Shown here: piece after piece, positions 13,548 to 61,404 of the stretch | Numbering within the stretch: position 1 is the first letter of the stretch | How the letters are laid out: each line of letters begins with the position of its first letter | Source of the DNA: Candidatus Harrisonbacteria bacterium CG10_big_fil_rev_8_21_14_0_10_40_38 | Lineage (GTDB): Bacteria; Patescibacteriota; Minisyncoccia; UBA6257; 1-14-0-10-40-38 | Reading direction: 5' to 3' | NCBI GenBank assembly: GCA_002773535.1 | Contig: PFAZ01000001.1 | Coordinates: 89,273-153,272, forward strand | DNA length: 64,000 bases | The notes under the pieces: model-generated | The model's database searches: none | The model's input: the letters and a program-made list of their open reading frames with translations, nothing else | Told to the model about the DNA's origin: nothing | Position numbers and translations under genes: made by a program

Positions 13548-13611
13548 TACACAAAGTGTAGCGGAAAACCGTTATTCGCTCTATAGGAAAAAAACCTGTG
13601 AAAAACTTTAT

Positions 13612-14379: not shown

Positions 14380-14530
14380 TTTTTTTACTAATTTTTCATA
14401 TTTCATGTCGCATTCCACATGCCACATTCCACATTTTACATTCACTATGTCGCATTCCACATGCCACAACCTTAATTAGAAATTAGATTAATTAGTAATT
14501 TTCTCATTCCCCATAATTCATATTTTCGCG
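14380..14530. repeat. intergenic repeat block: two copies of ATGTCGCATTCCACATGCCACA core plus ATTAG hexamer array
   Basis: Core motif at 14404-14425 and 14446-14467; aattagaaattagattaattagtaatt follows; related copies at 215-245 and 59960-60290. Confidence 0.7.
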
Positions 14531-19024: not shown

Positions 19025-19363
19025 TTACTTTATCCTGTTAATCTTCGCCGCTAAGATAAAATCATTTTCCGTTAAGCCACCAATCGCATGAGTCGAATTA
19101 ATAAGCCTTACTTTGTTATAAGAAATATGGATATCGGGGTGATGTCCCTCCTCTTCTGCTAACTCGGCAACAGAGTTTACAAACTTCATAGCCGTCTTAA
19201 AATCATCAAACTTAAAATCTCTCGAAATCTGTTTCGAATTTATTCCAATCTCCCACCCCAACACTTCAGCCATATAGGGTAAAGACTGTTCTCGTGTAAG
19301 CGGCATTACCCCACCCTCACACGGCACGCACTTTTTCTTTAATAAATTATTTTTCACAAACAA
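19025..19363 (-). CDS. pterin-4-alpha-carbinolamine dehydratase
   Basis: E-x-x-HHPD...W signature of PCD/DCoH (EEEGHHPDIHISY). Confidence 0.7.
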   Translation of the reverse strand: MFVKNNLLKKKCVPCEGGVMPLTREQSLPYMAEVLGWEIGINSKQISRDFKFDDFKTAMKFVNSVAELAEEEGHHPDIHISYNKVRLINSTHAIGGLTENDFILAAKINRIK

Positions 19364-19383
19364 ATTTTACCACAATTTCCAAT

Positions 19384-19728
19384 TTACAATTCATAATTTC
19401 TAATTTTTAATTCACGTCTTAATTTCCTATAATCCGGAAAAACCCTCGAAACTAAACCCCAAAACCTCGGCGAATGATTAAACTCTTCGAGGTGACAGAG
19501 CTCATGGACGATTACGTAGTCTCGGAGAATTGCCGGCAGAAAAAATAATTTATAGTTAAAATTCAAATTCCTTTTTTCACTACAACTTCCCCAGCAGGTT
19601 TTTTGATTTTTAATAAATATCCGATTAAAAGAGTGATCATAAATCTGGTTAAAATAGCCAACCCTCTCATGAATCAACCTCCTCGCATCTTCCTTGTATT
19701 TCTTATAATGAAACTTCGTAAGCCGCAT
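19384..19728 (-). CDS. YgjP/DUF45-like metal-dependent hydrolase (HExxH)
   Basis: WGSCS...VHELCHL motif arrangement typical of DUF45. Confidence 0.5.
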   Translation of the reverse strand: MRLTKFHYKKYKEDARRLIHERVGYFNQIYDHSFNRIFIKNQKTCWGSCSEKRNLNFNYKLFFLPAILRDYVIVHELCHLEEFNHSPRFWGLVSRVFPDYRKLRRELKIRNYEL

Positions 19729-19834
19729 ATAACTAAATTTTAAATTATTTTTCTATTTTTATCCCCTGTTGTTAAGTTTTGAAAAAATTCTTTTGCTATA
19801 ATCAATATGATATTACCAACTAACAAATTTTTTT

Positions 19835-20221
19835 ATGTTCAAAATAAAAAAAGAGACAGTCGTTGTAACAACCTCCGCCCTCCTTACAGTTGTTGCCGCG
19901 ATGCATTTATTGAGAATTATTTTTAACGTCGACATTAAGATAAACGGCACAAGTCTCATGATCTGGCCGAGCTACGTTGCTGTTTTAGCTCTAGGATTCC
20001 TCGCAGTTCTAAATCTTGAATCAATAGAAAGAAGGAATAAGACCACTTGGATAAAGTTTATTATGTGGCTCTTTGTACTCGACGCCATCGGGGTCTTCTA
20101 TTCATGGATGAGCAATCTTAGCTACTGGGGCATTTCAAGGAATGGATTCGGAGTAATCACACTTTTTGATGTTTTAATTGTCATCATTCTCGCGACAAGC
20201 ATAAGAAAAGCCAATCGATAA
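19835..20221 (+). CDS. membrane protein (hypothetical)
   Basis: 128 aa, 4 predicted TM helices; followed by terminator. Confidence 0.45.
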   Translation: MFKIKKETVVVTTSALLTVVAAMHLLRIIFNVDIKINGTSLMIWPSYVAVLALGFLAVLNLESIERRNKTTWIKFIMWLFVLDAIGVFYSWMSNLSYWGISRNGFGVITLFDVLIVIILATSIRKANR

Positions 20222-20240
20222 ACAATAACATATCAAAAAA

Positions 20241-20278
20241 CACCTCATATGCCATTAAATATATGAGGTGTTTTTTTA
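20241..20278 (+). terminator. rho-independent terminator
   Basis: acacctcatat...atatgaggtg hairpin followed by T7. Confidence 0.7.
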
Positions 20279-20311
20279 GGAAAAAACCAATAAAGTAAAG
20301 GAAAATTAACT

Positions 20312-20340
20312 ATTGACATAAACAGTATATTATGATAATA
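20312..20340 (+). promoter_or_regulatory. strong sigma70 promoter with extended -10 (TTGACA-N17-TGaTAATAT)
   Basis: Perfect -35, 17-nt spacer, TG-extended -10. Confidence 0.65.
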
Positions 20341-20344
20341 TATC

Positions 20345-20812
20345 CAAGCTCAATAAGAGCACAAATTTGTAAAGTACTTTTTGGAGGAGAATCATGCGCA
20401 AGTCCTGCCCCGTCCCCTTTTGCGACTCTCACACCGATTCGCGACTGAAGCGCCGGCTCCGTGGAAACCACGGAGAACGTCACCGTCGTCGCATCAATCG
20501 CGAGCTGGAAAAATTCATCTCCCTCGCGACGGCCAGGTCGACAGTGCCAGAGGGGGCGAGACGAGTCGCCCCCACACCTCCACCCGCAAGGACGAGAGTC
20601 GCTCGTCTCTTCTCGGGGTTGCGCAGGGTCTTCGCCCTGAGCTAGCCACTACCCCACCAAACCGCCCTACACACTGCAAAGTGTGTAGGGCATTCCATTT
20701 TAAAAAGACTTCAAAATCAGTTATAATCAAAAACAGCGAGATAGATTTTGGGTACTAAACAACCCTCCCCAAGGGGGATAAAGCGCCCATAAATCTATCT
20801 CGGTTTTTTTTG
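20345..20812 (+). ncRNA. candidate novel structured RNA (GC-rich, ~470 nt); alternative reading: 83-aa Arg-rich ORF 20394-20645
   Basis: ~60% GC core in a ~38% GC genome; all three overlapping frames on both strands are open (expected for GC-rich RNA); many hairpins (ccgtgg-aaa-ccacgg, gggggcga...tcgccccc, gccctacacac...gtgtgtagggc); ends at a compound terminator 20737-20811. GGAGGA plus ATG at 20394 keeps a basic-protein reading possible. Confidence 0.4.
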
Positions 20813-20838
20813 ACAAGAATTAAGAAACAAGCTATCAT
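20810..20838 (+). promoter_or_regulatory. sigma70-like promoter (TTGACA-N17-TATCAT)
   Basis: Motif and spacing. Confidence 0.5.
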
Positions 20839-20844
20839 ATCAAA

Positions 20845-21167
20845 TTGTTAGATCTTTGAAAAAAACCGAGGCAGTTGTTTTTAGGTCGTGGATGAATGGC
20901 CTCTTTCACCACCAAGTACTAACTGCCTCGGTTTCCAATGAATCCATAGCACTCTTTCTGTGCTGCCCGTTGTCCTCCCCTCCTCGTAGCGGCGCAGGAA
21001 AAGTGTCTATGGAGTCATACAAGGTCGACAAATAGTTTTCTACGCAGTCCTTAGCACACTCCTCATCTCAAAAGAAGTGCGCAAGAAGATCCTCCGGCGC
21101 AGAATAACCAATTGTTGACCCAGTCCCTCGGTGAATCTCGCCCTTCACCGAGGGGCTCTTTTTTTTC
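20845..21167 (+). ncRNA. candidate structured RNA (~320 nt) ending at terminator 21125-21167
   Basis: Long-range 12-bp stem accgaggcagtt (20865-20876) / aactgcctcggt (20921-20932); GC-rich middle; canonical terminator ccctcggtgaa...ttcaccgagggg plus T9; no credible ORF. Confidence 0.35.
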
Positions 21168-21529
21168 GACAAATATTTGTAAAGATGCTTTAATAAAAAA
21201 AATAGGCTCTGGGCTGGGTTTCGAGCAGCGAATATGGACGATATTCGCCTGCTATAAGAAGCCCGGTCTGGAGCCACCTATCCTTAGACATATTTCCATA
21301 ACAACCAAACCACGGATTTTCACCCCGTGTTTTTTTTGACAAATTATTTCTCTCCCCTTATCAATGCAGAAAAGTTAGGATCATCTGCATATTTTAGAGC
21401 CCTGTCATTTATAAAAAATCTTTCTCTAGCTTCTTCAAAAGTAATGTCCGTATCAATTAGTCCAAGATCATACGCCAACTTATCTGAATCAGCTTAAACC
21501 TCTGCGAATATATAGCTTCAATATAAATA

Positions 21530-21760
21530 TTGTTTTGTAAACATTTCGATGGTATATTGCAAATAGCAAAAATTGACTCTGGGCTGGTCCGTGGTGAACC
21601 TCTAAGTAGAGATTCGTAGCCGTGATCTACCAGCCCAGAGTCACTACATAGTTCCTTTCCATAGCTCGGGGGCAATCAAATGTGTTTATCCAGTGAGGGG
21701 TCTGGCAGAACCCGAAAATAGCTAAATACATATGACCTGTCCCCGGGTCATTCTTTTTTT
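21530..21760 (+). ncRNA. candidate small RNA with 14-bp perfect inverted repeat (promoter TTGTTT-N17-TATATT; terminator 21732-21760)
   Basis: gactctgggctggt (21575-21588) pairs with accagcccagagtc (21629-21642); the arm motif ctctgggctgg recurs at 21205-21217; hairpin plus T8 terminator. Confidence 0.35.
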
Positions 21761-21814
21761 AGAAAACAAAAACGTGACCTACAAAGGCCACGTTTTTTGC
21801 TTATCTACACAACA

Positions 21815-22018
21815 CTAGTTTTCTGGGGTTTCTTCCCACAACTTATCAAACATCGCATTCCATTCGGTCATACTTTCCGGTGTAGCTTTTTCTACCATAT
21901 CTTTATGAGCTTCTTTTGCGTGTTCACTCATTTTTCCGCGTACTTCATCAACTGTTTCGCCGGAAGCTTCAAATGTGCATTCGCCTCCTCCAACTTGAGA
22001 ACATTTAATTGTTTTCAT
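21815..22018 (-). CDS. DUF1059-like small protein
   Basis: 67 aa with MKxxxCxxxGGxCxFEAxGET...HAKEAH pattern; bidirectional terminator hairpins at 21773-21798. Confidence 0.5.
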   Translation of the reverse strand: MKTIKCSQVGGGECTFEASGETVDEVRGKMSEHAKEAHKDMVEKATPESMTEWNAMFDKLWEETPEN

Positions 22019-22159
22019 TTTTATAAATTAGGTTAATCTTTCGACCGGGCAAACATAGCACGAATCAAGTAGATAGTCTATAAAGATATTTTTTTATTGA
22101 CATCGCAAAATTTTCTTTTATTCTTACAACCAGATCATATCCCAAGAAGGAGGTGTGTT

Positions 22160-32917: not shown

Positions 32918-34114
32918 CTATTTTGCTCTTTTCAAATAAGACCCCCTAATAGCTCTATGATACGATATTGCAAACCTATGCGCCTCATCGCGTACTGCGA
33001 CAAGATTTTTTTCAGAAAAACCGGAAGGAATACTCCCAACAAATTCATTCTTCTTTCGTTTTGGGCCTTTTGCTATGCCAATAATAGGCACTTTAACACC
33101 CGCCTCCCCGATTATCTCCCGAGCCGCATTTACCTGTCCTATCCCACCATCTATCAAAACAAGATCAGGTATAGGCCAGTCAGAATGAGAAAATCTTCTT
33201 CGTAAAACTTCTTTAAGCATCCCGACATCGTTCGACTGGCGTATAGTTCTTATCTTAAATTTCCTATATTCGTTTTTGTTAGGTTTCCCACCGCTAAAAA
33301 CAATCATAGACCCGACCGCAGAAGTTCCAGAAATATTCGATATATCATAACCCTCGATTCTGGCATTAGAAAGCTCTTCTCCCGTATCCAGGCCATCCTC
33401 ATTTATAAGAGCAACATCCTGAATGTGCCTTAGCGCAAATATTTGTTTTCGCAACTCCCCCGCTTTTTCAAATTCGAGGCTGTCACTCGCTACTTTCATA
33501 TCCTTTTCAAGACTGGTTATAAGCCTTCGTTTTTTGCCCTGAAAAATAAGTTTTATATTCTCAATATTTTTCTTGTAGTCTTTTTTAGAAATAGCGCCGA
33601 CACACGTCCCTGGGCAAAGCCCTATTTGATAATCAAAACACGCCTTTCCGTCGCCGGCTTTGTGCATAGAATACGGAAAAATTTTTCGTAGCATGTGAAG
33701 TACAAGTCTTATGCTCCTACCAGAAAGAAACGGACCAAATCTAGTTCCTGTAGCTAGACTCTTTCCTCTCACAAGTAAGATTCTCGGAAAATCCTCACGT
33801 GTAAACTCGACATACAAGAAACTTTTATCATCCTTTTCCAAAACATTAAATGGTGGCTGATATTTTTTGATAAGATTCGCCTCCAGTATGAGCGCCTCAA
33901 GAGCCGTATCGGTTTCTTCAAAATCAATAGACTTTATTTGAGAAACCATTTTCTCAATTCGCGCAGACTGTGGGCGCGAAAAATAACTGGATACTCTTCT
34001 TCTTAGGTTTCCAGCTTTACCAATATACAAAATCCGTCCTTTGGTGTCCTTCATAAAGTACACCCCGGGGTTTTCGGAAATATGAGAATAAATTTTTTTC
34101 TTATCTTCTTTCAT
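32918..34114 (-). CDS. uvrC: excinuclease ABC subunit C (short form, 398 aa)
   Basis: GIY-YIG motif (GVYFMKD...ILYIGKAGNLRRRVSSY), UVR coiled coil, RNase H-like endonuclease region; no C-terminal HhH region is evident in the 398-aa ORF. Confidence 0.7.
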   Translation of the reverse strand: MKEDKKKIYSHISENPGVYFMKDTKGRILYIGKAGNLRRRVSSYFSRPQSARIEKMVSQIKSIDFEETDTALEALILEANLIKKYQPPFNVLEKDDKSFLYVEFTREDFPRILLVRGKSLATGTRFGPFLSGRSIRLVLHMLRKIFPYSMHKAGDGKACFDYQIGLCPGTCVGAISKKDYKKNIENIKLIFQGKKRRLITSLEKDMKVASDSLEFEKAGELRKQIFALRHIQDVALINEDGLDTGEELSNARIEGYDISNISGTSAVGSMIVFSGGKPNKNEYRKFKIRTIRQSNDVGMLKEVLRRRFSHSDWPIPDLVLIDGGIGQVNAAREIIGEAGVKVPIIGIAKGPKRKKNEFVGSIPSGFSEKNLVAVRDEAHRFAISYHRAIRGSYLKRAK

Positions 34115-34537: not shown

Positions 34538-34885
34538 GCGAGTTCTCCAAAAGTGGGTTTGAAAAGAACAACGGCAGTCTACATAAAATTAAAAACATTG
34601 TAAATATCCACACATAAAAATTTGCGATAATTTAGTAAAAAAGTTAATCTGAAATCAGCATTCGGACATAAGGGAGGCGGTCTCAAAAATCTAAAAGCAG
34701 CAAGAAGGAACCCCTCCTTTATCGATACCCTCGCCGAGACATGCTAGATCTCGGCGAGGGGTTTTCTTTTTTTAAAAAAACCGCGCCCATATTTTCAGTT
34801 ATTAGTCGTCAGTCGTAAGTTCCTAGTCGCTACCCACTAACCCATCTAATTCCTAGTGGCTTAAATTAGTTTTCAGTTTTCTGTT

Positions 34886-37468
34886 TCAAGTCTTTAGTAT
34901 CCTCCTAAGATATTCCCCCGTAAAACTTTTCCCTGTTTTAGCTATCTGCTCTGGCGTCCCTTCCGCAATTATTTTTCCTCCCTTGTCTCCTCCTTCGGGC
35001 CCAAGGTCAATGACCCAATCAGCAGATTTTATTACATCAAGATTGTGTTCGATAACAACAACGCTGTTTCCACGCTCAACAAGCCTGTTTAAAACATCAA
35101 GGAGTTTTTGAACATCGGCAAAATGAAGTCCGGTAGTCGGTTCATCAAAAAGATAAATTGTTCGGTGCGTATCACGCTTTCCAAGTTCCGCAGAAAGCTT
35201 AATGCGTTGCGCCTCACCGCCAGATAATGTCGTCGCAGATTGTCCAAGTTCAAGATAGCCCAAGCCAACTTCTTCTAAAATTTTAAGCCTGTCGTGCAAC
35301 CAAGGAACATCATAAAAAAAAGTTACAGCCTCCTCAACGGTCATTTTAAGAACCTCATGAATATTTTTCCTATTCTTATCTTTCCCTCTTCGATCAAGAC
35401 CGGAAGTAGTCGATGGGCCATAAGTAACTTCTAAAGTCTCGCGGTCAAATCTTTTACCACGGCAAACATCACACTCAACATAAACCGTTGGTAAAAAATG
35501 CATTTCAATCGCGATTACTCCATGTCCCTCGCAGTTTTCACATCGCCCTCCTTTTACGTTGAAGCTAAATCTCCCCGGTTTATATCCTCTCACTCTCGCC
35601 TCTTCAGTAGAAGCAAAAAGATCACGAATATACGTCCACGCGCCTACGTAAGTTGCAGGGTTTGATCTAGGCGTCCTTCCGATCGCCGACTGATCAATGT
35701 TTATAACCCGATTCAAATTCTCCAGACCGGAAAGTGAGCTCATCTCCGCTGTCTTATATTTTGTATAGTTAAATTTGTTTGAAAGCGAACGATAAAGAAC
35801 GTCATAAAGAAGAGTGCTTTTCCCAGAACCAGAAACACCCGTTATAGCCACAAATCTTTTAAGAGGTATCTTTGCGGTAACTCCTTTCAGGTTATTTATA
35901 TTAATATTTTTCGCTACTAAAAACGGATGATCTTTCTTTAGCTTCCTCCTTTCAGACGGAACAGCTATCATCTGTTTTCCACGAAGATAATCAAGTGTCG
36001 GTGAATGTTGCTTCGTATCTTTCAAAAGCGCTGGCATCGGCCCAGCAGCAACCACGTGTCCTCCGTGAACACCAGCTCCGGGCCCGATATCTACTAGATA
36101 ATCAGATGCCCTGATTGTATCTTCGTCGTGTTCAACGACAAGGATTGAGTTCCCAAGATCACGAAGTTCTAGAAGCGTATTTATTAGTTTTGCGTTATCT
36201 CTTTGGTGTAGGCCAATGGTCGGTTCATCAAGAACATAAAGCGCTCCAACAAGTCGGGAGCCAATCTGCGATGCCAACCTTATTCTCTGCGCTTCACCTC
36301 CAGAGAGAGTCCCCGCCTTTCGGTTTAAAGTAAGATACTCAAGCCCAACATCGTACATAAACTTAAGTCGGCTCTGAATCTCGCGAAGCGGAACCTCTGC
36401 AATAGCGAGTATATTTTGCGCATCCTGCTGCCTCTTCAATGAAAACTTCTTTTTAAAAGATTCAAAAAATTCAGTCGCCTCCGATATAGAAAAACCCGTA
36501 ACCGAAGCAATATTTTTTCCATCAATTAAAACATTTAACGCTTCAGGCTTTAGTCTTCGCCCCTCGCATGCTTTACAAATATTATCCGAAAAAAGATCTT
36601 CAGTCCCAAGACCGTGGCAAGTTTCACATGCTCCAAATGGACTATTAAATGAAAAAAGTCTCGGTTCGATTTCCGGAAAAGAAAATCCATCTCTAGGACA
36701 AGTAAACTTTGTCGAAAAAGACGCTTCGCGATCAGTCACGATTGTCGCAACTCCTTTGCCATATTTGAGCGCATTCTCAACTGCCTCCGAAACGCGCAAA
36801 CGACTATCCTTACTCGAAAAGTCGAGCATGCCGGGCATCCTATCTACCACAAGCTCAATCGTATGCATTTTATATCGCGCGATATCTATCCTGTCATGAA
36901 GCGAAATATATTCCCTATCAATCCTCGCTTCCGAAAAACCGGCATTCAAAAGATCATACAAAAGCTGAAAGTGTTCACCCTTTCGGCCCTGAACAACCGG
37001 CGCCAAAATAACAAGATTTTTTCCTTTGCCGGTTTTTGCAAAATCAATCGCAATATCCACTATCTCCTCGTTTGTAAGCCGCCTTATCTCTTCTCCGCAA
37101 TCAGGGCAGTGTGGAACACCGGCGCGAGCAAAAAGTACCCGAAGATAATCATATATCTCGGTTATCGTAGCAACTGTAGAACGAGGATTTGCGCTATGAC
37201 TTTTTTGGTCAATGGAAATTGCAGGCGAAAGCCCCTCAATCTCATCAACATCGGGTTTATCAAGCTTTCCTAAAAATTGCCTCGCATACGCAGAAAGCGA
37301 CTCAATATATCGCCTCTGCCCTTCGGCAAAAATTGTATCAAACGCAAGTGAAGACTTCCCAGAACCAGAAAGACCCGTAAACACAACCAGTTTATCCCTC
37401 GGAATCTCGAGTGAAATATTTTTCAGGTTATGTTGCCGCGCTCCTTTGATTTTGATTTTATTTTGCAT
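34886..37468 (-). CDS. uvrA: excinuclease ABC subunit A
   Basis: Two ABC ATPase modules ([18 protein letters not shown]), LSGGE signatures, zinc-finger CxxC pairs; 860 aa. Confidence 0.9.
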
Positions 37469-37635
37469 ATCACTTATTCGTTAATTCATTATTCTTAATT
37501 CATAATTCAAAAAACTTAATCTACTAAATTAAGAACAAAAAATATAGATTTTATTCCTTTACACCACAGAATGACCCCAATCCGTCTTTAGGGGTTGTCA
37601 CAAAAAGTAACACAAAATCCGCTTATCGTAAAACC

Positions 37636-38403
37636 CTACAAAACAAAAATCAAAAACAAAATCGCAACCAAAATGCGATAAACTCCAAACGCCTTAAAGT
37701 CGTGTATCCGCACAAATTTTAAAAGAAATCTTACCGAAATAAGCGCGAATACAAACGAAACCACAAACCCGACCCCAAGCATCAAAAACTCATTAAAACT
37801 AAAATCAAACCCGCTCTTCAGTAAATCAAATCCCGTCGCCGCCGCCATAGTGGGTACCGCAAGGAGAAACGAAAACAAAACCGCCGCCTCACGTGAAAGC
37901 CCTAAAAACCTCGCGCCTATTATTGTAGCGGCGGATCGTGAAACCCCTGGCACTATAGCGAGCGATTGAATAACCCCAATCAAAACCGCGTTTGGATATT
38001 TCAGTTTTTCAATCTCCTCGCCTACTTCTTTTTTCTTCAAAATATTTTCAAGAAATATTAAAACCACTCCACCAATCAAAAGCGCAAAAACAACTACATA
38101 AGCACTGCCCAATAAAAATCCTTTTACAAAAGGATATAAAATAAACCCAATAATAGCAGTCGGCAAAAATGCGAGCGCAATTCTCACAATCGTTTTTTTA
38201 TCCTGAAAAAGATATTTTGGAAACAAAACCACAACTGCGAGGATGGCTCCAAGCTGTATCGCTATTTCAAATGAACTCAAAAACTCGCTTGAGGGAATCG
38301 TCAAAAGTTTTGAAGCAAGTATCAGGTGTCCCGTAGAAGATATCGGCAAAAATTCCGTAAACCCTTCGATAATCGCCAAAACAATCGTATAAAAAATATT
38401 CAT
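37636..38403 (-). CDS. uppP: undecaprenyl-diphosphate phosphatase
   Basis: EGFTEFLPISSTGH BacA signature, polytopic membrane protein. Confidence 0.85.
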   Translation of the reverse strand: MNIFYTIVLAIIEGFTEFLPISSTGHLILASKLLTIPSSEFLSSFEIAIQLGAILAVVVLFPKYLFQDKKTIVRIALAFLPTAIIGFILYPFVKGFLLGSAYVVVFALLIGGVVLIFLENILKKKEVGEEIEKLKYPNAVLIGVIQSLAIVPGVSRSAATIIGARFLGLSREAAVLFSFLLAVPTMAAATGFDLLKSGFDFSFNEFLMLGVGFVVSFVFALISVRFLLKFVRIHDFKAFGVYRILVAILFLIFVL

Positions 38404-38532
38404 AACTAAATTATAACCAAATTAAAATCATAAAAATAACTAACTCTACACAGAAAGCGCATCTCGCCCACACTCACCTATCACTCACTTTTTTTATCAC
38501 CTTTTTCACCAACCATTATCCATTTCCACTCA

Positions 38533-38568
38533 CCTAACAATTTTTGACGATCGTCAAAAATTGTTAGG
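38533..38568. promoter_or_regulatory. 36-bp perfect palindrome CCTAACAATTTTTGACGATCGTCAAAAATTGTTAGG upstream of uppP
   Basis: Perfect dyad symmetry; near-identical copy at 39980-40015. Confidence 0.7.
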
Positions 38569-38679
38569 TAAATTATTAAGTAAGCAGTAAAAGATTAAAA
38601 ATCTAAAGTTGGCAAAATAAAAAAAGAATCGCCCCCTAAATCGGGGGCGTCCTAAAAGCGAGTAAGTGATTTTTCCGAA

Positions 38680-38877
38680 TCAGTGGGTGGTTCCTCGAGA
38701 CCGAGCATCCTCTCTACACTTTTTGCGAAGAAATCTGAAAAAATCTTTCTCCTCGCTTTCGTCAAGATCAACAGCTATTCGATCAGCTTCGTCTATCAAA
38801 GCCTCCGCATCAATATCACTTCTCTTCATAAAAGCATCGATTTCCGCACAGGCATCTTCTAGTCTATTGCTTGACAT
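38680..38877 (-). CDS. small acidic hypothetical protein
   Basis: 65 aa; terminator hairpin 38625-38665 after stop; shares C..ID..D pattern with upstream small ORF. Confidence 0.4.
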   Translation of the reverse strand: MSSNRLEDACAEIDAFMKRSDIDAEALIDEADRIAVDLDESEEKDFFRFLRKKCREDARSRGTTH

Positions 38878-38908
38878 ATCAAGCTCCTTTCGGCTTTGAG
38901 GAAAATCA

Positions 38909-39115
38909 CTATTTTCCTTTTGGCTTCGGAAATTTTTCTGACATCAGTTTTTTAAAGGTTTGGAAAACAATTTCTTCATATTTCCCAAACTTTTTCATAA
39001 TTGCATCAATACCATCAATACATGAATCGCGAGTAGCACCCACTTTTTCAAACATTGCGTGAACCGCGTGAATCGCTCTTTTCTTCATAGAATCACCCAT
39101 CAAAAACCTCCTCAT
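38909..39115 (-). CDS. small hypothetical protein
   Basis: 68 aa; operonic with flanking genes. Confidence 0.4.
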   Translation of the reverse strand: MRRFLMGDSMKKRAIHAVHAMFEKVGATRDSCIDGIDAIMKKFGKYEEIVFQTFKKLMSEKFPKPKGK

Positions 39116-39220
39116 CTCCTTTCATTGAGTGCTATCCGTTTCTCTTTCATCCTTTTCTCGAGAGACGGAATGTAGTAGGAAAGAATCTCAAGTGGAGTGG
39201 CAACGAGCCACTGCCACAAC

Positions 39221-39661
39221 TTATCCCTGAAGCTCCTCTTGAAAGTCAAAGGGAATCACAGCAACTCTTATTCTCCCAAACACACGCCTTGCAAGAAACT
39301 CCACCTTAAAAGCACGAATGCTATCACAAAAAATCAATACACAGATATCGTCTGGGACGAGATATTTTTGAGCAATCGCCGCCCTCACAATCACGTTTGA
39401 GCCGGTCAAGTTACCCAACGTTGTTACCGCTCCTACCTCCTCAACAATCTCATTACTAACGCCGCAACGCTGAAGAACATTCTTCATCAGTCCTGCTTCA
39501 GAAACACTCGATGTTGCAATATTCGTAAGCCCGCCGGATACAACAACAAAGTCAATTTCACTTTCATTGTATTTGATTATATCGCCGGCATTCCTCAAAT
39601 ATGCTTCATATTTCTCAGTAAGATGACACCCGTATCCGCAGACAATCACGACTTTTGACAA
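39221..39661 (-). CDS. DUF218 (YdcF/SanA-like) domain protein
   Basis: VVIVCGYG...VVSGG pattern typical of DUF218; TTG start. Confidence 0.45.
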   Translation of the reverse strand: MSKVVIVCGYGCHLTEKYEAYLRNAGDIIKYNESEIDFVVVSGGLTNIATSSVSEAGLMKNVLQRCGVSNEIVEEVGAVTTLGNLTGSNVIVRAAIAQKYLVPDDICVLIFCDSIRAFKVEFLARRVFGRIRVAVIPFDFQEELQG

Positions 39662-39744
39662 GACTCTCTCCCTTCAGGAAAGAAGAAAATGTAAAAACTG
39701 CTAATTTGAAAATAAAATAAATCAAAACATTTGTAAATAATACA

Positions 39745-39949
39745 AAAACAAAAAAAGCCGCTGCTAGAAATTGAAACGCCAGTCCCCAAAACAAGCTCGG
39801 CACTCACTTTGAGGTGTTTCAATCTCTAGCAACGACGGAGCTATTACAAGTGACAGTTCGCGACCCCGTTTAGGCGCGGAATTACCTAACAGAGAAACTA
39901 TCACCTGTAACAACAAACACCATACTAATCAATAGAAAAAAATTGTCAA
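39745..39949 (-). promoter_or_regulatory. minus-strand promoter (TTGACA-N17-TAGTAT) plus leader containing a 19-bp-stem hairpin followed by a U-run (attenuator or small RNA)
   Basis: -35 TGTCAA at 39944-39949 and -10 at 39922-39927 on + coordinates; stem 39759-39777 / 39816-39834; U-run 39745-39757. Confidence 0.45.
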
Positions 39950-39979
39950 CTACCCCAAAAAAACCACACCCAAACACCA

Positions 39980-40015
39980 CCTAACAATTTTTGACGATCA
40001 TCTAAAATTGTTAGG
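39980..40015. promoter_or_regulatory. second copy of the 36-bp palindrome (34/36 identical)
   Basis: CCTAACAATTTTTGACGATCATCTAAAATTGTTAGG, immediately upstream of the DUF218-operon promoter. Confidence 0.7.
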
Positions 40016-40018
40016 TAA

Positions 40019-40050
40019 AGAAAAACGCCTCAGAACAAGTCCGAGGCGTG
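40019..40050 (-). terminator. rho-independent terminator of the 40077-40631 gene
   Basis: gcctcggacttgttctgaggc hairpin plus U-run on minus strand. Confidence 0.6.
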
Positions 40051-40076
40051 AAGGCCATCGCAGAAAAAACCAAAAA

Positions 40077-40631
40077 TCAAGAATTGAGATCAACACACTC
40101 TTCTGGAACAAAATACCAAACATCATCCTCACATGATCCAACCAAGAGTAGTCGCCCGCCATTGATGGTAACTATGAGTCCGGGATCAGTATCGCATTTA
40201 CTTTTATCACCAACCGAGCCATTTTGCACTTGAATGTACAACTCTGGGGGCGCTACCAACGAAAACATACCCTCCGCACCATCATCAGATGAAAAACCCG
40301 CCCTGAAACAAACAATGGGAATAGACAAACTAACACACCCACGATCCCACATATAACGTGCAAGTTCTCGTTCATCCTCTTCAGATTCTTGATTCCCTTC
40401 ATGTTGCTGATTTGAACTATGTATATCATTGAACGCCGCTTCAATCAGAACCGATTTCGAAATCGACTCACAAGGCGTATCCGTAAAAAGATACGGCATT
40501 GCAAGTTTGATTGTTTCCAAAATAACCTGATCAGTTTCGGTCATAAGAAGCAGACCCAATTTTGAATTACGTTCATCTCGCGCAAGACGGGCAATGGCCG
40601 GCCAGTTCTTGTAAAGTTTTTGCCACGACAT
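40077..40631 (-). CDS. hypothetical protein
   Basis: 184 aa, acidic, no motif. Confidence 0.4.
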   Translation of the reverse strand: MSWQKLYKNWPAIARLARDERNSKLGLLLMTETDQVILETIKLAMPYLFTDTPCESISKSVLIEAAFNDIHSSNQQHEGNQESEEDERELARYMWDRGCVSLSIPIVCFRAGFSSDDGAEGMFSLVAPPELYIQVQNGSVGDKSKCDTDPGLIVTINGGRLLLVGSCEDDVWYFVPEECVDLNS

Positions 40632-40867
40632 GTCTCTCTCCTTCGTATTTCTGGTTTTTCAAACAACAAACAACCAAAAAATTATACACAAATAAAAATT
40701 CTTGTAAATCCCTCATCCTTCTCCCAATCTCTCAAAGCATTAAGAAAAGCCCAACCTTTCTCGATAACAAAACATATATTTTAAAACCTCGGGCTGGCAA
40801 CGGGGTCAAATATCTCGATCGGAACGATCTTTTATAAATAGAGGAGGGTTTTAAAATATATGTTTTG

Positions 40868-42955
40868 TTACAAACCTCTCCCTTTGCTTTTCTTAATCAA
40901 AACTCTCATTTCGTCTCTCAAAATCGCAGCTAGCTCAAAGTCCAGTTGCTTCGCCGCCTCCTTCATTTCCAATTCTTTTTCTTTGATTAGTTTTTCGATA
41001 GCAGTTTTTGATTTCGGCATCGGTTTCATTTCAAAACGAAGCACATCTTCCGCCAACTTACCCTTTTCATCATATTCAGGAAGAATATCCTTAACAGCTT
41101 TAATAATTGTTTTCGGCGTAATGCCATGTTTCTTGTTATATTCCATCTGCAATTTTCTCCTTCTATCGGTTTCTCTTACAGCTCTTTCGATTGAACCGGT
41201 TATACGATCAGCATAAATCACCACTTCACCGGCAACGTTTCTTGCCGCGCGCCCAATAGTTTGAATGAGCGATGTTTCACTCCTCAAAAATCCTTCTTTG
41301 TCAGCATCTAAAATCGCCACCAGTGAAACTTCTGGCAAGTCTAATCCCTCACGAAGCAGGTTTACACCAACAAGCACATCAAAATCCCCTCTTCTAAGCG
41401 CGGTTAATATTCTTATCCTATCGAGTGTTTTCACGTCACTATGTAAATAAGCAACCTTCGGCTTCAAGTTTTTAGTTTTTAGTTTTAAGTTCGCAAGATA
41501 TTCCGAAAGATCTTCAGCCATCTTTTTTGTAAGCGTCGTAACTAAAACTCTTTCTTTTTTTCCAACCCTCTCTACGATCCTTTCGATCAAGTCATCTATC
41601 TGACCCAAAACCGGCCTCATGGTAATTTTTGGATCAACGAGCCCGGTCGGCCTGATAATCTGCTCAACAACCTGACCCGTTCGCGTGTTGCTTGTCACTT
41701 GCCGCTCGTAAGGTCCCGGTGTAGCCGATGTATACACAATATTCGAAACTCTCTTTAAAAACTCATCAAATTTCAAAGGCCTGTTATCCGCCGCAGAAGG
41801 CAGTCGAAACCCATATTCTATTAAAGTCTTTTTACGAGAAGCATCGCCTGCGTGCATTCCCTGGATCTGCGGCACAGTTACGTGAGATTCATCAATAACA
41901 GTCAAAAAGTCGGGTTTTCCGTCCTTTGTTTTTGGAAAATAATCCAAAAGCGTATCTGGCGGCGCTCCGGCAGCTCTCCCTGAAAGGTGACGCGAATAGT
42001 TTTCAATTCCATTACAATAACCAATCTCGTTTATCATCGCGATATCAGCCTTAGTTCTTCTTTCAAGTCTTTCTGCTTCAAGATATTTTTTTTCTTTCTC
42101 AAATTTTACGAGCTGCGCTGAAAGCTCCTTTCGTATAGCAGCAACAGCTCTTTGCCTATCATCTTTTTGAGTAATAAAATGCTTTGCGGGAGAAATTATG
42201 AGTTCTGGTATTAATGGAGTTTTACCGGGTTGAAAACCAGCAACAGGATCAACCTCAAAAATTTTCTCAATTACGCCATCGTGAGTTTTCACAAAATAAA
42301 TCAACTCTCTGTCAGGAGGCATTATTTCCCATTGATCACCCCTAAGACGAAAACTTCCACGTTTTAAGTCGGCAGATGTCCTCGTAAAATGAAGCTCGAT
42401 AAGTTTGCGGGCAAAAGACGCTCTATCAATCTTATCGCCCTCTTTAAAATGAAAAATGTTTTGCGCATAAACTTCCGGCGCGCCAAGTCCGTATATGCAC
42501 GAAACCGAAGCGACAACTATCACATCACGTCGCGTGAGAAGCGCAGTCGTAGCCGCATGTCGCAATTTATCAATCTCATCGTTTATCATCGCCTCTTTTG
42601 CGATATATGTGTCCGACATCGGCATGTATGCCTCCGGCTGATAGTAGTCGTAGTATGAAACAAAATAATGAACCGCGTTATTCGGAAACAATTCCCGAAA
42701 CTCATTGGCAAGCTGTGCCGCCAAAGTTTTATTGTGAGCGATTACAAGAGCCGGTTTATTTATTTCCGCTATCACGTGCGCCGCAGTGAAAGTTTTTCCG
42801 CTTCCGGTAACACCAAGAAGGATCTGATTTCGCAGATTTTTTTTGATACCAGAAACCAAAGCGGATATCGCTTTAGGCTGATCCCCAGCCGGTTTGTTTT
42901 TTGATTCAACACGAAACATAAGGAGAAGAATACTGATATTACTGAATAATATCAA
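40868..42955 (-). CDS. uvrB: excinuclease ABC subunit B
   Basis: Walker A GVTGSGKTF, helicase motifs, beta-hairpin region, C-terminal UVR domain; contains NLKLKTKNLKPK heptad-repeat insertion. Confidence 0.9.
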   Translation of the reverse strand: MILFSNISILLLMFRVESKNKPAGDQPKAISALVSGIKKNLRNQILLGVTGSGKTFTAAHVIAEINKPALVIAHNKTLAAQLANEFRELFPNNAVHYFVSYYDYYQPEAYMPMSDTYIAKEAMINDEIDKLRHAATTALLTRRDVIVVASVSCIYGLGAPEVYAQNIFHFKEGDKIDRASFARKLIELHFTRTSADLKRGSFRLRGDQWEIMPPDRELIYFVKTHDGVIEKIFEVDPVAGFQPGKTPLIPELIISPAKHFITQKDDRQRAVAAIRKELSAQLVKFEKEKKYLEAERLERRTKADIAMINEIGYCNGIENYSRHLSGRAAGAPPDTLLDYFPKTKDGKPDFLTVIDESHVTVPQIQGMHAGDASRKKTLIEYGFRLPSAADNRPLKFDEFLKRVSNIVYTSATPGPYERQVTSNTRTGQVVEQIIRPTGLVDPKITMRPVLGQIDDLIERIVERVGKKERVLVTTLTKKMAEDLSEYLANLKLKTKNLKPKVAYLHSDVKTLDRIRILTALRRGDFDVLVGVNLLREGLDLPEVSLVAILDADKEGFLRSETSLIQTIGRAARNVAGEVVIYADRITGSIERAVRETDRRRKLQMEYNKKHGITPKTIIKAVKDILPEYDEKGKLAEDVLRFEMKPMPKSKTAIEKLIKEKELEMKEAAKQLDFELAAILRDEMRVLIKKSKGRGL

Positions 42956-49473: not shown

Positions 49474-52023
49474 ATGAAAAAAACTAATAATTTATTCACA
49501 AAATTAGCTGCTATATCCCTCGCGATAGGGGTATTGGGAAGCGCTATCCCAGTAGTAGCAATCGGCCTTCCGGAGGTTCAAACCTTGCCAGCAACAGGCA
49601 TTACTTCAGATAGCGCAACACTAAACGGTCACGTACATCAAACAAGAGCCAGCGACCTCTTGGTTTGGTTTGAATATGGCGAAACAGAATCACTTGGGAA
49701 ATCAATTGGCGACAAAACAGTTAACTGGCCCGATTCCGAAGACGCCAACTGGAGCGCATTAATTTGGAATCTAAAACCAAACACAACCTACTATTTCAGA
49801 GCAGTTGCTCAAAACGACCTTGGAACTAGCAGAGGAAGCTTAATGTGGTTTACGACTGGTGCGGGATCTCCCCCATCAGGTGATAAGCCAAATGTAAATA
49901 CAAAATCAGCAACCAATATTACAACTTCAGCCGCAACACTTAACGGTGAAGCAAAACCAAACGGCTCATACACAGACGGTTGGTTCGAATGGGGTACAAC
50001 TTCAAACCTTGGAAATACAACAAATAGTCAATCGCTCGGAAATGGTTCATCTTTCGTTCCCTTTTCATTCAGATTAAATAATCTTCAAAGCAATAAAACA
50101 TATTACTTCCGCGCCGTAGCAAGAAATTCCCATAGCACATCTCATGGAACAACTTTCGAGTTTAATACAAATAACGATGGCGGAGGTAGTTCAAGAACAC
50201 CAACCGTAGAAACTCTTTCTGCGGATAACATCACCGGACACGAAGCAAGACTAAATGCCGACGTAAATCCAAACGGTAGCAGAACTTATGTTTGGTTCGA
50301 ATGGGGTGAAGTCGCAAAAAACAACCACTCACAGGAAAGAGATATCGGAAGTGGCACAAGTTTCGAACGTGTTTCTGAAACAATCACAGGTCTTAAAGCA
50401 AATACAAATTACAACTTCCGCGCAGTTGCAAGAAACAGCAACGGAACAACTTACGGCAATACAAAATATTTCACAACAAACAATGACGGGAATATCGACA
50501 AGCCAACAGTCAGAACAAATCCTGCAACAGATATATCAAGCTATTCAGCCCGCCTTCAGGGAACAGTAAATCCTAACGGAAATCAGACAAACGTTTGGTT
50601 CGAATATGGAAAAACCAGTTCATTCGGAAGATCAACCGGATATCAATCAGTAGGCTCTGGTAGATATGACATCGATGTTTCCTCATATGTTTCTGACTTG
50701 GAAATAAACACAGTTTATTATTTCAGAGTTGTCGCTTCAAACAGCTACGGAACAAGTTATGGTCAAACACGAACATTTGTCACAAATCAGGACGGAGGAG
50801 AAAGTTATCGCGCTCCAACTGTCTACACAACAAATGCAACTGGCGTAACCAGAGATTCAGCCATACTTAACGGATCCGTAAATCCAAACGGAGCCACTAC
50901 AAGAGCATGGTTTGAATGGGGTTATACAGCTTCACTCGGCAACAGAACTTCTTACCAGAATATTGGTGGAGGTACTAGTTCATTTACCGTAAGCGCGCCA
51001 ATATATAATCTCTCCGACAATACAACTTATTATTTCAGAGTTGTTGCAGATAATAACTACGGAACAAGCTATGGAAGTATTTATAGTTTTACAACCGGAA
51101 CTGGATCAAATTCCTTAGCTCCATATGTAACAACGCTTTCACCATATAGCGTCCTTACAAATATCGCAGGAGTAAAAGCGAACATTAATCCAAACGGCTC
51201 TTACACAGACGGTTGGTTCGAATGGGGTACAACGCAGTCTCTCGGTCAGAGAACAACAAGAGTTTCTGTTGGAAGTGGAAATTCATATACAGAATTAACC
51301 TCTGTACTGTTAAATCTCTCCCCTAATACCACATATTACTTCCGAGGTGTTGCACAAAATTCATACGGCACAGGATATGGCGCAATTATTTCCTTCACAA
51401 CACAAGGCGGAGGTACAACTCCTCCCCCATCAGGTGGTGGAACGGGAAGCGGTATCATTGGCCCAACACTTACACTCACATCATCTCTCGATAAGAGCGA
51501 AGTAAAAGTTGGAGAAGAGTTGATCTATAAACTCATGCTCAAAAATACAAGCTCAACTCACTCTCTTCGAAATGTAAAAGGAACGATTAAAGTACCGGAA
51601 ATTGTAAGCTTCCTTTCAGCAAACGCAATGATGATGATAGAAAATCCTGAAGAAATATCATTTAACATCGACAGATTAACTCCACTCGGGGAAAACGAAA
51701 TCCAGATAAAATTCAGAGTAAACGAAAAATCCAAAAACAATGACGATTTAACAATCCAAACCGAGATCAAATATTCAGACGCGCTCGGAAGAAGTTATAA
51801 TGTCAGCACATTTGCTACAGCAAAGGTGCACGGAGGTATCGGCCTACTCGCATCAATCAGCGATCTTTTCACTGGAGCAAGTATTTCCCTCGGATGGTTC
51901 CTAGTAATCCTCTTGTTACTCATCATCCTCGGGATAGCATACAGCCAGTGGAATAGACGCAAACTTGAATCAATTCTCTATCAAAACCCCCCGCCTCCTC
52001 CTCCACCTATTCGTGAAGCATAA
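49474..52023 (+). CDS. cell-surface protein: signal peptide, ~8 fibronectin-III-like repeats, DUF11/CARDB-like domain, C-terminal TM anchor and poly-Pro tail
   Basis: Recurring NPNG...WFEWG...YYFRAVA.N..G.S.G motif (FN3-like Y.FR.VA.N signature) about every 100 aa; TM WFLVILLLLIILGI; ends PPPPPPPIREA. Confidence 0.7.
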   Translation: MKKTNNLFTKLAAISLAIGVLGSAIPVVAIGLPEVQTLPATGITSDSATLNGHVHQTRASDLLVWFEYGETESLGKSIGDKTVNWPDSEDANWSALIWNLKPNTTYYFRAVAQNDLGTSRGSLMWFTTGAGSPPSGDKPNVNTKSATNITTSAATLNGEAKPNGSYTDGWFEWGTTSNLGNTTNSQSLGNGSSFVPFSFRLNNLQSNKTYYFRAVARNSHSTSHGTTFEFNTNNDGGGSSRTPTVETLSADNITGHEARLNADVNPNGSRTYVWFEWGEVAKNNHSQERDIGSGTSFERVSETITGLKANTNYNFRAVARNSNGTTYGNTKYFTTNNDGNIDKPTVRTNPATDISSYSARLQGTVNPNGNQTNVWFEYGKTSSFGRSTGYQSVGSGRYDIDVSSYVSDLEINTVYYFRVVASNSYGTSYGQTRTFVTNQDGGESYRAPTVYTTNATGVTRDSAILNGSVNPNGATTRAWFEWGYTASLGNRTSYQNIGGGTSSFTVSAPIYNLSDNTTYYFRVVADNNYGTSYGSIYSFTTGTGSNSLAPYVTTLSPYSVLTNIAGVKANINPNGSYTDGWFEWGTTQSLGQRTTRVSVGSGNSYTELTSVLLNLSPNTTYYFRGVAQNSYGTGYGAIISFTTQGGGTTPPPSGGGTGSGIIGPTLTLTSSLDKSEVKVGEELIYKLMLKNTSSTHSLRNVKGTIKVPEIVSFLSANAMMMIENPEEISFNIDRLTPLGENEIQIKFRVNEKSKNNDDLTIQTEIKYSDALGRSYNVSTFATAKVHGGIGLLASISDLFTGASISLGWFLVILLLLIILGIAYSQWNRRKLESILYQNPPPPPPPIREA

Positions 52024-59939: not shown

Positions 59940-60285
59940 TCATTAACTAGATCAATTAGTCGTTACATGTCGCATTTAACATTCCACAATCTTCAGTATT
60001 TAGTTTTCAGTTTCAAGTTTTCGGTTTTTAGTTGTAAGTCTTAAGTCTTAAGTTTTCGTCTTCGGTCATTAGTATTTGGAATTTATTTGTAATTTGGGAT
60101 TTGGAATTTAATTAGGTCAATTAGATTAATTATCATGCCGAAGGCAGATCCTCCTCCGGAGGAGCAATTAGAAATTAGTCGTTAGTCTTCAGTTATTAGT
60201 TTTTAGTTGCTAGTTGCTAGTCTTTAGTTGTAAGTTGTAAGTCACATTGTTTTACATATAACATTTCACATGCCACAATATTGTT
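59940..60285. repeat. intergenic repeat block: AGT-heptad arrays, ATGTCGCATT...CCACA core copies, ATTAG array, 14-bp palindrome CTCCTCCGGAGGAG
   Basis: Runs of 7-nt units tagtcgt/tagtctt/cagttat/tagtttt/tagttgc...; core motif at 59964-59990 and 60255-60285. Confidence 0.7.
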
Positions 60286-61404
60286 ATGAACTTTCTAAGC
60301 AAAGCAAAACAATCAGCTATAAAAAATAAAACATGCATCCTTCGTGCTGGCTTCGACATACAAAATAAAAATGAAACACTCCGTCTCGAAGCCACTCTTC
60401 CCACACTCAACCTTCTTTTAAAAAATGATGCAAAAATTATTATTATCGCTCACCGTGGCCGACCAAAAAAAACATACTCTTTAGGAAAAAAAGTAAAAGC
60501 AAATAAAGACGAAACCCTCGCTGTAACACTTCCCTACTTTAAAAAAAATCTTAAAACCCAAATAACCCTCGTTTCAGATTTTAATCTCAAAACCCTTAAA
60601 GAAAAAATCAAAAAATCAAAACCTAAAACAATCTTCCTTCTCGAAAATATCCGACTTATTAAAGGCGAAGAAAAGGCAGACCCAAAGCTCGGCAAAGCCC
60701 TTTCAGAACTTGGAGATTTTTATATAAATGACGACTTTGCCGCAGCACACAGGTCAAACTCCTCAATAACAGAGATTCCAAAACACATACCATCCTATGC
60801 AGGTCTTCTTCTCGAAGCTGAAATAAACGCACTCAGAAGAGCAACCAGTAAACCCAAAAAACCGTTTGTTGTAATCGTAGGCGGAGCCAAAGTGCCGGAA
60901 AAAATTTCCGTTGTCGGAAAGCTACTGCCAACAGCCCAAACATTCCTCATCGGCGGCATAGTGGCTACAACATTTCTAAAAGCAAAAAACCTTGATATCG
61001 GCAAGTCAAAATTCGATAAAGAAATGATACAAGCCGCTCAAACTCTCGAAAAAAGTAAAAAAATAATTTTACCCGCAGATTATGTCGTTCACAATGACGA
61101 GATTCAGGACATAGGTCCCGGAGCAATAAAAATCTTCAGCACAGAAATTAAAAAAGCATCAACAATCCTCTGGAATGGCCCCATGGGACACTTTGAAGAT
61201 AAAAGATTTAGAAAGGGTTCGGAAATGATTGCGAGAGCAATAGCAAAGAGTAAGGCATTTTCACTGATAGGCGGCGGGGAAACAACAGAATTAATTAGGG
61301 AATTAAAACTTCAAAAGAAGGTTGGCTTTCTCTCAACTGGAGGCGGAGCTATGCTCACCTATCTCGGAGGCGGAGCTATGCCAGCGCTAGAAGCTCTTGG
61401 ATAA
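60286..61404 (+). CDS. pgk: phosphoglycerate kinase
   Basis: N-domain RAGFDIQ...AHRGRP and C-domain nucleotide-binding motifs; 372 aa. Confidence 0.85.
   Translation: MNFLSKAKQSAIKNKTCILRAGFDIQNKNETLRLEATLPTLNLLLKNDAKIIIIAHRGRPKKTYSLGKKVKANKDETLAVTLPYFKKNLKTQITLVSDFNLKTLKEKIKKSKPKTIFLLENIRLIKGEEKADPKLGKALSELGDFYINDDFAAAHRSNSSITEIPKHIPSYAGLLLEAEINALRRATSKPKKPFVVIVGGAKVPEKISVVGKLLPTAQTFLIGGIVATTFLKAKNLDIGKSKFDKEMIQAAQTLEKSKKIILPADYVVHNDEIQDIGPGAIKIFSTEIKKASTILWNGPMGHFEDKRFRKGSEMIARAIAKSKAFSLIGGGETTELIRELKLQKKVGFLSTGGGAMLTYLGGGAMPALEALG

Follow-up and report, generated by a model that had tools for sequence, protein, structure and literature searches.

A direct pair of 42-nt palindromic repeats around a DUF218 module between uvrB and uvrA in a Patescibacteria genome, tentatively read as recombination-type junctions

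Short symmetric DNA recognition sites that are duplicated around a module are a known general kind of element. The dif sites are approximately 28-31 bp long, with an asymmetric central region, and the gonococcal genetic island is flanked by one good and one degenerate dif copy. The looping operators of deo, gal and lac are 16-21 bp long and imperfect, and each of them has a known cognate repressor. The attC sites of integrons carry the R-box consensus RYYYAAC...GTTRRRY (PMC5027507), in which the AAC/GTT triplets are conserved (PMC5027507; PMC4889954), and are defined by three unpaired features, i.e., extrahelical bases, a central spacer that stays unpaired and a terminal structure, 20-100 nt in size, that is variable (PMC4889954). 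Here, we describe a pair of palindromes, PAL1 and PAL2, found in a stretch of 64,000 nt (hereafter, the window) from Candidatus Harrisonbacteria bacterium CG10_big_fil_rev_8_21_14_0_10_40_38. Between uvrB and uvrA, the pair brackets a module that includes a DUF218 gene; all genes of this locus are on the minus strand. The pair is real, non-random and unusual, and it belongs to no described family.

The first-pass annotation of this DNA had reported a 36-bp perfect dyad at 38533-38568 and a copy of it, with 34/36 identities, at 39980-40015. A direct sequence check verified the perfect self-complementarity of the former (CCTAACAATTTTTGACGATCGTCAAAAATTGTTAGG), as well as the copy, in which the two substitutions (40000 G>A and 40003 A>T) both fall in a single arm, beside the dyad centre. 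However, the 36-bp palindrome is only part of the repeat: the true unit is 42 nt long (Table 1) and 95% identical between the copies (40/42), and the dyad within it extends over 38 nt, ACCTAAC...GTTAGGT, with a loop of zero (38532-38569 in PAL1). Both copies have the same asymmetric flanks, with C to one side and AAA to the opposite one, and are therefore direct repeats of a single unit. The edges of the 42-nt identity are sharp; the surrounding intergenic DNA of the two copies is unrelated, and no target-site duplication is visible at the edges. With arms of 19 nt and no loop, PAL1 is the longest perfect palindrome of the window. The remaining perfect hairpins, with loops of 3-8 nt, have arms of at most 13 nt, compared to at most 11 nt in shuffled sequence, and none of 100 dinucleotide shuffles yielded any palindrome match. 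As single-stranded DNA, PAL1 folds with -16.2 kcal/mol (z=-8), the value being the same for either strand and the four central bases being unpaired; the values for PAL2 are -12.1/-11.4 kcal/mol. No further copy was detected, at up to 9 mismatches in 36 nt or up to 4 in the 18-nt half-site, in the window and approximately 10 kb of each flank (contigs L023 and L026), in total approximately 84 kb, in which the DNA upstream of mraY, ftsW, murG, femAB and an M23 peptidase gene is covered. The presence of two copies only in this DNA suggests a local pair, which does not obviously belong to a dispersed family.

The two copies stand at the borders of one self-contained segment of approximately 1.45 kb, which comprises a promoter-like site, a structured RNA, three open reading frames (ORFs) and a terminator. 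This segment is one of three self-contained units in the uvrB-uvrA gap, together with a gene for a 184-aa protein and uppP (Table 1). Long perfect inverted repeats occupy three of the four unit borders in the gap, namely the 106-nt inverted repeat IR106, PAL2 and PAL1; these three, packed in 2.4 kb, are among the eight perfect inverted repeats with arms of at least 13 nt in the entire 64 kb. We compared the gap with its counterparts in four relatives (L021, L029, L030 and L031), the UvrA proteins of which are 74-75% identical to the one encoded here. The number of genes between uvrB and uvrA across these five Patescibacteria is 0, 1, 1 and 5 in the relatives and 6 here, and the gap thus appears, from gene order, to act as a hotspot at which genes are inserted within an ancestral uvrB-uvrA-uvrC cluster. 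The sharp-edged identity of 42 nt with the same asymmetric flanks fits a single unit that was duplicated in direct orientation and, combined with the variable gap and the inverted repeats at unit borders, favours PAL as the insertion junctions of the DUF218 module. The first-pass annotation had mentioned cassette mobility between direct repeats as an alternative to a regulatory role. This alternative turned out to fit better than the regulatory one, given the variable gap and the own promoter and terminator of the module, yet it is unproven. We tentatively interpret the PAL copies as recombination-type junctions of one inserted module.

Table 1. Coordinates of the features discussed (positions are those of the window unless a contig is named)
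Feature	Coordinates	Strand	Remarks
uvrB	40868..42955	-	Upstream border of the variable interval; Pfam annotation
IR106	40765..40870		106 nt; perfect 24-nt inverted arms, 58-nt loop; abuts uvrB, an arm beginning with the uvrB TAA stop codon as first triplet; resembles a MITE (miniature inverted-repeat transposable element) by its looks; single copy in the window
Promoter-like TTTACA-N16-TATAAT	40708..40681	-	Strong, 11/12 matches; precedes the 184-aa gene
184-aa orphan gene (module 1)	40077..40631	-	ORF; no family match
Intrinsic-terminator-like hairpin	40025..40049	-	10 pairs and T-run; ends the 184-aa unit; T-tract enters PAL2
PAL2	39978..40019		Starts 9 nt past the terminator stem of the 184-aa gene; ends 30 nt before the TTGACA -35 (minus-strand sense)
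Sigma-70-like promoter TTGACA-N16-TAGTAT	39922..39949	-	10/12 matches; consensus match only
Structured RNA, approximately 170 nt	39745..39915	-	Two long hairpins, the second followed by U7; folding energy
Solitary third PAL outer-end 10-mer, TTACCTAACA	39882..39891	+	Located in the RNA's hairpin 1
Weak second promoter-like site	39737..39709	-	Between the structured RNA and the DUF218 gene
DUF218 gene, frameshifted	39112..39661	-	PF02698, E=1e-8; alignment to homologs
68-aa orphan protein	38909..39115	-	Basic; three-helix bundle predicted
65-aa orphan protein	38680..38877	-	Acidic
Intrinsic-terminator-like hairpin	38630..38649	-	7 G-C pairs and T-run; ends the DUF218-68-65 unit
PAL1	38531..38572		61 nt past the terminator of the 65-aa gene; 129 nt before the uppP ATG (minus-strand sense)
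uppP/bacA (undecaprenyl-diphosphatase)	37636..38403	-	Pfam BacA, E=1e-69; NCBI name UppP; third unit in the interval
uvrA	34886..37468	-	Downstream border of the variable interval
uvrC	32918-34114	-	Beyond uvrA; 119-aa ORF between uvrA and uvrC
uvrB-uvrA gap, window	37469-40867		Three units
uvrB-uvrA gap, L029	8999-9001		uvrB abuts uvrA; uvrC next
uvrB-uvrA gap, L030	7689-8999		One unrelated 436-aa orphan gene
uvrB-uvrA gap, L031	8524-8892		One ribosomal S30AE-family gene
uvrB-uvrA gap, L021	3304-7016		Five genes including a DUF218 homolog

The repeat, its perfect symmetry at the level of DNA, its location at the borders of the module and the variation of the interval among relatives are observed. 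We infer that the duplication originated by recombination, that PAL is recognised by a recombinase and that the substitutions in PAL2 block excision, according to the following model. PAL would be a symmetric protein-recognition site at the DNA level, of the recombination or mobility kind, and its copies would represent the left and right junctions of the 1.45-kb module. The module would have entered the uvrB-uvrA gap by recombination of an incoming PAL with a chromosomal PAL, with one hybrid PAL left on each side, as in the case of attL and attR. The recombinase would be a dimeric protein with its gene elsewhere; it would contact the two 19-bp arms and exchange the strands near the CGATCG centre. 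The two substitutions in PAL2 would break the match between the partner sites, and the module is probably frozen in place; it also seems to be decaying, because its DUF218 gene is frameshifted. Orphan genes, such as those of the module, are common as cassette cargo.

Several observations weigh against the model of recombination junctions. No integrase, resolvase or transposase gene was found in the window and 10 kb on each side. The full symmetry of PAL1 gives a recombinase no directionality; in known core recombination sites, the spacer is usually asymmetric. By their defining tests, PAL belongs to neither of the two best-known cassette systems, attC and terminus dif (discussed below). Similar DNA is absent from plasmid, phage and viral collections: there is no match to the whole PAL-to-PAL segment in a BLAST search against plasmids and phages, and no match to the core TTTTTGACGATCGTCAAAAA in viral contigs. 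The GC content, the GC content at third codon positions (GC3), the strand skew and the codon usage of the module genes match those of the neighbours, with no sign of a recent foreign origin. The DUF218 homolog located between uvrB and uvrA in L021 is 44% identical, so the DUF218 gene may be an old resident of the gap; if this is the case, the 95% identity of the PAL copies needs selection or gene conversion rather than recency. The mismatch with attC and terminus dif sites, the lack of a recombinase, the lack of a composition anomaly and the DUF218 gene of L021 keep our confidence in the recombination model below one half.

The population data also weigh against a module that moves. We collected all contigs encoding the exact UppP, DUF218, 184-aa and 65-aa proteins, which came from at least 8 samples. 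These contigs are 99.99-100% identical and agree in gene order and orientation, and no deletion, inversion, circle junction or relocation was detected among them. A test for an inverton likewise gave a single orientation in 14/14 loci checked and no invertase; it should be noted that assemblies show the majority orientation only, and a minority orientation is possible. Two Logan contigs (L002 and L007) end inside PAL1, at window positions 38540 and 38561, and PAL2, with its two mismatches, was assembled through. These contig ends are an assembler effect of the perfect palindrome, which could pass for a structural breakpoint. The nearest non-self proteins in the databases are 60% identical for UppP and 75% identical for UvrA, and the closest UppP homolog is found in an unrelated gene context, outside of the candidate phyla radiation (CPR).

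With regard to integrons, the ends of the dyad, ACCTAAC and GTTAGGT, fit the R-box consensus of attC in both copies, with a chance probability of approximately 1e-3 in a fixed register for an observation made post hoc. Nevertheless, we rejected PAL as an integron attC site: it has 38 nt with perfect 19+19 pairing, contains no bulge or internal loop and shows none of the three unpaired features. The arrangement resembles a cluster of attC sites lacking integron-integrase (CALIN) in that palindromic sites are located between units of the same orientation, the cargo is orphan and there is no integrase nearby; no integron integrase (Phage_integrase type) is encoded by the window or by the 10 kb adjoining it on each side. 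The content is different: the PAL unit comprises a promoter-like site of its own, together with an RNA and three ORFs, and a usual integron cassette is a single ORF without a promoter. Another difference from both CALINs and integrons is that there are only two PAL sites here. Among the papers found, none documents integrons in CPR bacteria.

PAL was also rejected as a terminus dif site, since all 4-kb windows between 1 and 64000 have a negative GC skew, with no change of sign. PAL shares features with integrative mobile elements exploiting Xer (IMEX): a segment without a recombinase lies between two direct copies of a short palindrome, one perfect and one mismatched near the centre, where mismatches would hinder excision and the recombinase would act in trans. 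Against the organisation of Xer/dif sites (two 11-bp arms and a centre of 6-8 bp), PAL is readable as arms and the centre CGATCG, but it is 38 bp long and fully symmetric. No Xer gene was seen. One could extend the junction model to a minimal CPR cassette system, in which a trans-acting recombinase would shuffle self-contained modules with promoter and terminator into the uvrB-uvrA-uvrC hotspot, via perfectly paired 38-bp palindromes that have an attC-like AAC/GTT core but lack the unpaired features of attC; we consider this extension improbable.

The regulatory role proposed in the first-pass annotation was that of operators shared by an envelope-stress regulon. Several of its premises are sound. 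Both palindromes are indeed upstream, in the minus-strand sense, of a transcription unit, at the distances from the uppP start codon and from the TTGACA hexamer that had been given as approximately 130 and 30 bp (Table 1). The identities of UppP and DUF218 are correct, and their functional pairing is reasonable, in view of ElyC, the DUF218 protein of E. coli, which has a genetic tie to undecaprenyl-phosphate supply (PMC3879167), and of synteny. On the metagenomic contig L022, which encodes the closest DUF218 homolog, a Bac_transf gene follows directly. The Bac_transf family consists of undecaprenyl-phosphate sugar transferases. The promoter was correct in its hexamers TTGACA and TAGTAT; the spacer, however, is 16 nt by our count and not 17. 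As for the operon of the DUF218, 68-aa and 65-aa genes, the genes are present, but the promoter would first yield the structured RNA of approximately 170 nt, and the DUF218 ORF is frameshifted.

The step from these premises to a shared regulon finds no support. Dyad symmetry upstream of genes is present, but recurrence at envelope genes and a constant promoter spacing are not. The half-site search, at up to 4 mismatches in 18 nt, revealed no extra site anywhere in the 84 kb, the mraY-ftsW-murG-femAB region included. By consensus prediction, approximately 83 nt separate the centre of PAL2 from the transcript start inferred downstream of it for TTGACA-N16-TAGTAT, and the centre of PAL1 is approximately 135-145 nt upstream of TATAAT, the sole good -10 element before uppP. 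No helix-turn-helix or other DNA-binding family was found among the neighbours (Pfam on 30 ORFs, NCBIfam, PADLOC, PHROGs, PDB, and AlphaFold with Foldseek), and no candidate regulator was identified. The 40/42 identity with sharp edges in unrelated DNA gives the impression that both copies descend from a single unit; operators under selection usually diverge more than the PAL copies. A wider envelope regulon is thus not supported in the testable sequence.

A narrower hypothesis is that of a local operator pair, in which a dimeric or tetrameric factor would act on both palindromes and co-regulate the DUF218 operon and uppP, maybe by looping the 1.45 kb between them. We regard this explanation as possible but doubtful. 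It would account for the perfect dyad and for the position of both copies upstream of transcription units on the same strand, and the location of PAL2, at approximately 83 nt upstream of the inferred start, is one used by activators. DUF218 and UppP are plausibly linked, as both would concern the undecaprenyl-phosphate carrier (PMC3879167; synteny on L022). Moreover, it is the intact gene, uppP, that has the perfect copy upstream, and the frameshifted operon that has the mutated one, and, if the DUF218 gene is an old resident, near-identical copies imply selection on the sites. The inner core TTGAC-N4-GTCAA is presumably similar to CRP/FNR-type boxes. In the deo, gal and lac systems, a promoter or operon likewise has near-identical dyad sites around it, at distances of hundreds of bp from each other; PAL differs in its 38 bp, its perfect symmetry and its inconsistent promoter spacing. 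The same unequal distances from copy to promoter (approximately -83 versus approximately -140) count against a local pair, and so does the lack of an extra site in the 84 kb, even upstream of cell-wall genes, and of an identified regulator among the neighbours. A perfect 38-bp dyad and a 42-nt identity exceed what is usual for selection on operators. Control of DUF218 would be indirect at best, because the promoter at PAL2 yields a terminated structured RNA first, and the DUF218 genes of L021 and L022 have no PAL-comparable site upstream. Likenesses to LexA/Cheo, CIRCE, BirA, CodY, WalR, parS and hix sites were checked by eye and rejected owing to misfits in spacing or orientation.

Alternatively, PAL could be a selfish or structural palindromic repeat, i.e., a small family similar to repetitive extragenic palindromes (REPs) or MITEs, made of back-to-back terminal inverted repeats, that landed twice in junk-tolerant intergenic DNA. 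Its effects would be at most incidental, such as cruciform formation or insulation of transcripts. PAL resembles REPs, bacterial interspersed mosaic elements (BIMEs) and MITEs in being a short, sharp-edged intergenic palindrome near the 3' ends of genes, next to the MITE-like IR106. The sharp edges are in line with such an origin, near-identical copies suggest recent spread, and the position of both copies in terminator-proximal intergenic DNA is typical for REPs. It may also be relevant that IR106, with its perfect 24-nt arms, is another MITE-like element in the same interval and that the genome has other dispersed intergenic repeat families. However, REPs are usually imperfect and G+C-rich, occur in tens to hundreds of copies and are associated with a gene for a REP-associated tyrosine transposase (RAYT), none of which is the case in the 84 kb here; MITEs are at least approximately 50 bp long and have target-site duplications, which were not seen in the 84 kb either. 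No RAYT, Y1 or other transposase gene is nearby, and the two copies, 1.4 kb apart, exactly bracket one transcription unit.

Two copies in 64 kb are compatible with a few dozen copies in a genome of approximately 1 Mb. The arm pattern CTAACAATTTT-N10-14-AAAATTGTTAG was sought in the genomes of 185,579 species, in JGI contigs from metagenomes and in contigs of viruses, which gave 4, 8 and 1 matches, respectively, all with unrelated centres and flanks and all attributable to chance; thus, no related sequence was found in the other genomes and metagenomes scanned. The genome and metagenome pattern scans missed contigs known to be positive (e.g., Ga0066649_10000424 and Ga0210050_1013979), so that their negative results do not cover this organism. 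Overall, a selfish repeat seems to us an unlikely origin of the pair.

If PAL acted at the RNA level, it would form a hairpin in transcripts, for example, upon read-through into uppP, and this hairpin would terminate, stabilise or provide a processing site. Each copy is downstream of a gene 3' end, and one of the two changes in PAL2 still allows a G-U pair in the sense transcript. A further hint comes from the solitary third 10-mer, TTACCTAACA, the expectation of which by chance is approximately 0.12 per window for a post-hoc observation: in the transcript, this copy reads UGUUAGGUAA and is complementary to the 5' arm of any transcribed PAL. Nonetheless, both copies are located past good terminators, so little transcription of them is expected. 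PAL is followed on the minus strand by GTGAGTGG or GTGGTGTT, and on the plus strand by TAAATTAT or TAAAGAAA, with no U-run on either strand. As an intrinsic terminator, PAL was rejected: the stem is A+T-rich and without a U-run, and a terminator scan of the window did not call it. The contrast with the adjacent structured RNA is instructive. The latter folds with -80.3 kcal/mol (z=-8.8) in the sense and -43.7 kcal/mol (z=-3.6) in the antisense orientation, and this asymmetry is indicative of a G-U-dependent structure and of a genuine RNA feature of the sense strand. The PAL stem, in contrast, does without G-U pairs and shows equal stability on the two strands, which suggests that PAL is read as DNA, most likely by a symmetric protein that recognises it in double-stranded or extruded form. 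A role of PAL as an RNA hairpin is very improbable.

The module between the proposed junctions has several features of its own. The structured RNA ends approximately 80 nt before the start of DUF218, with an A+T-rich spacer in between, and it could be either a stand-alone small RNA or an attenuator-like or riboswitch-like leader of the DUF218 operon. It matches no Rfam family; in the entire window, the sole above-threshold Rfam match is a tRNA located elsewhere, and the palindromes gave only sub-threshold matches to generic microRNA hairpins. The DUF218 ORF of 146 aa (39661..39221) aligns with two homologs of 186 and 213 aa (P0122 and P0123) up to "...IPFDF", and the 44 C-terminal homologous residues are encoded in a different frame (39249..39112), with a shift of 1 nt near 39240. 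The second frame ends in a stop codon that shares bases with the start codon of the 68-aa gene (ATGA). All assemblies have the same sequence here; hence, the frameshift is real in the population, and it represents either a pseudogene or a programmed frameshift. In the interval, only the DUF218 gene and uppP have assigned families, and the others are orphan genes (Pfam, PADLOC, NCBIfam, PHROGs and PDB sequence searches). The AlphaFold2 model of the 68-aa protein (predicted local distance difference test, pLDDT, 77) shows a three-helix bundle of a generic type, for which Foldseek gave no significant fold match, and the model of the 184-aa protein is unusable (pLDDT 37).

If the PAL copies are true junctions, they would mark gain and loss of accessory modules in a very small, host-dependent CPR genome, at a fixed hotspot in a conserved DNA-repair cluster, and their recognition site would be of a family not yet described. 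As operators, they would count among the earliest cis-regulatory sites put forward for the metabolism of the lipid carrier undecaprenyl phosphate in CPR bacteria. The general significance is modest at present, as these observations come from a single locus of a single clonal population that lacks close relatives. The most useful output is the corrected anatomy of the locus: a strongly structured but unclassified RNA of approximately 170 nt, a frameshifted DUF218 gene and a variable uvrB-uvrA gap that long inverted repeats partition.

Some additional repeats were observed in the course of the analysis. In L030, an inverted repeat of 151 nt (13427-13577 and 15139-15289; 99% complementary) brackets most of a gene for a large serine recombinase, 2 kb downstream of uvrA, and could be an invertible segment or an assembly artefact. 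It was rejected as a counterpart of PAL, being not comparable and located at a contig end. In the window, the region of approximately 19100-22050 has no ORF of at least 150 aa and contains long-armed hairpins (20235-20276, 20863-20934 and 21574-21643); it may hold non-coding RNAs or small genes. Intergenic repeats with a period of 7 nt (AGTYNNN; CATTCCA/CATGCCA) are found at approximately 166-282, 3883-3917, 14391-14484, 34797-34902 and 59953-60293. They are partly common to several loci (87% identity between 211-248 and 14438-14475) and form a dispersed intergenic repeat family. An ORF of 849 aa (49474-52023), with faint fn3-like Pfam matches, contains at least five tandem repeats of approximately 306-312 nt, which correspond to approximately 100 aa each.

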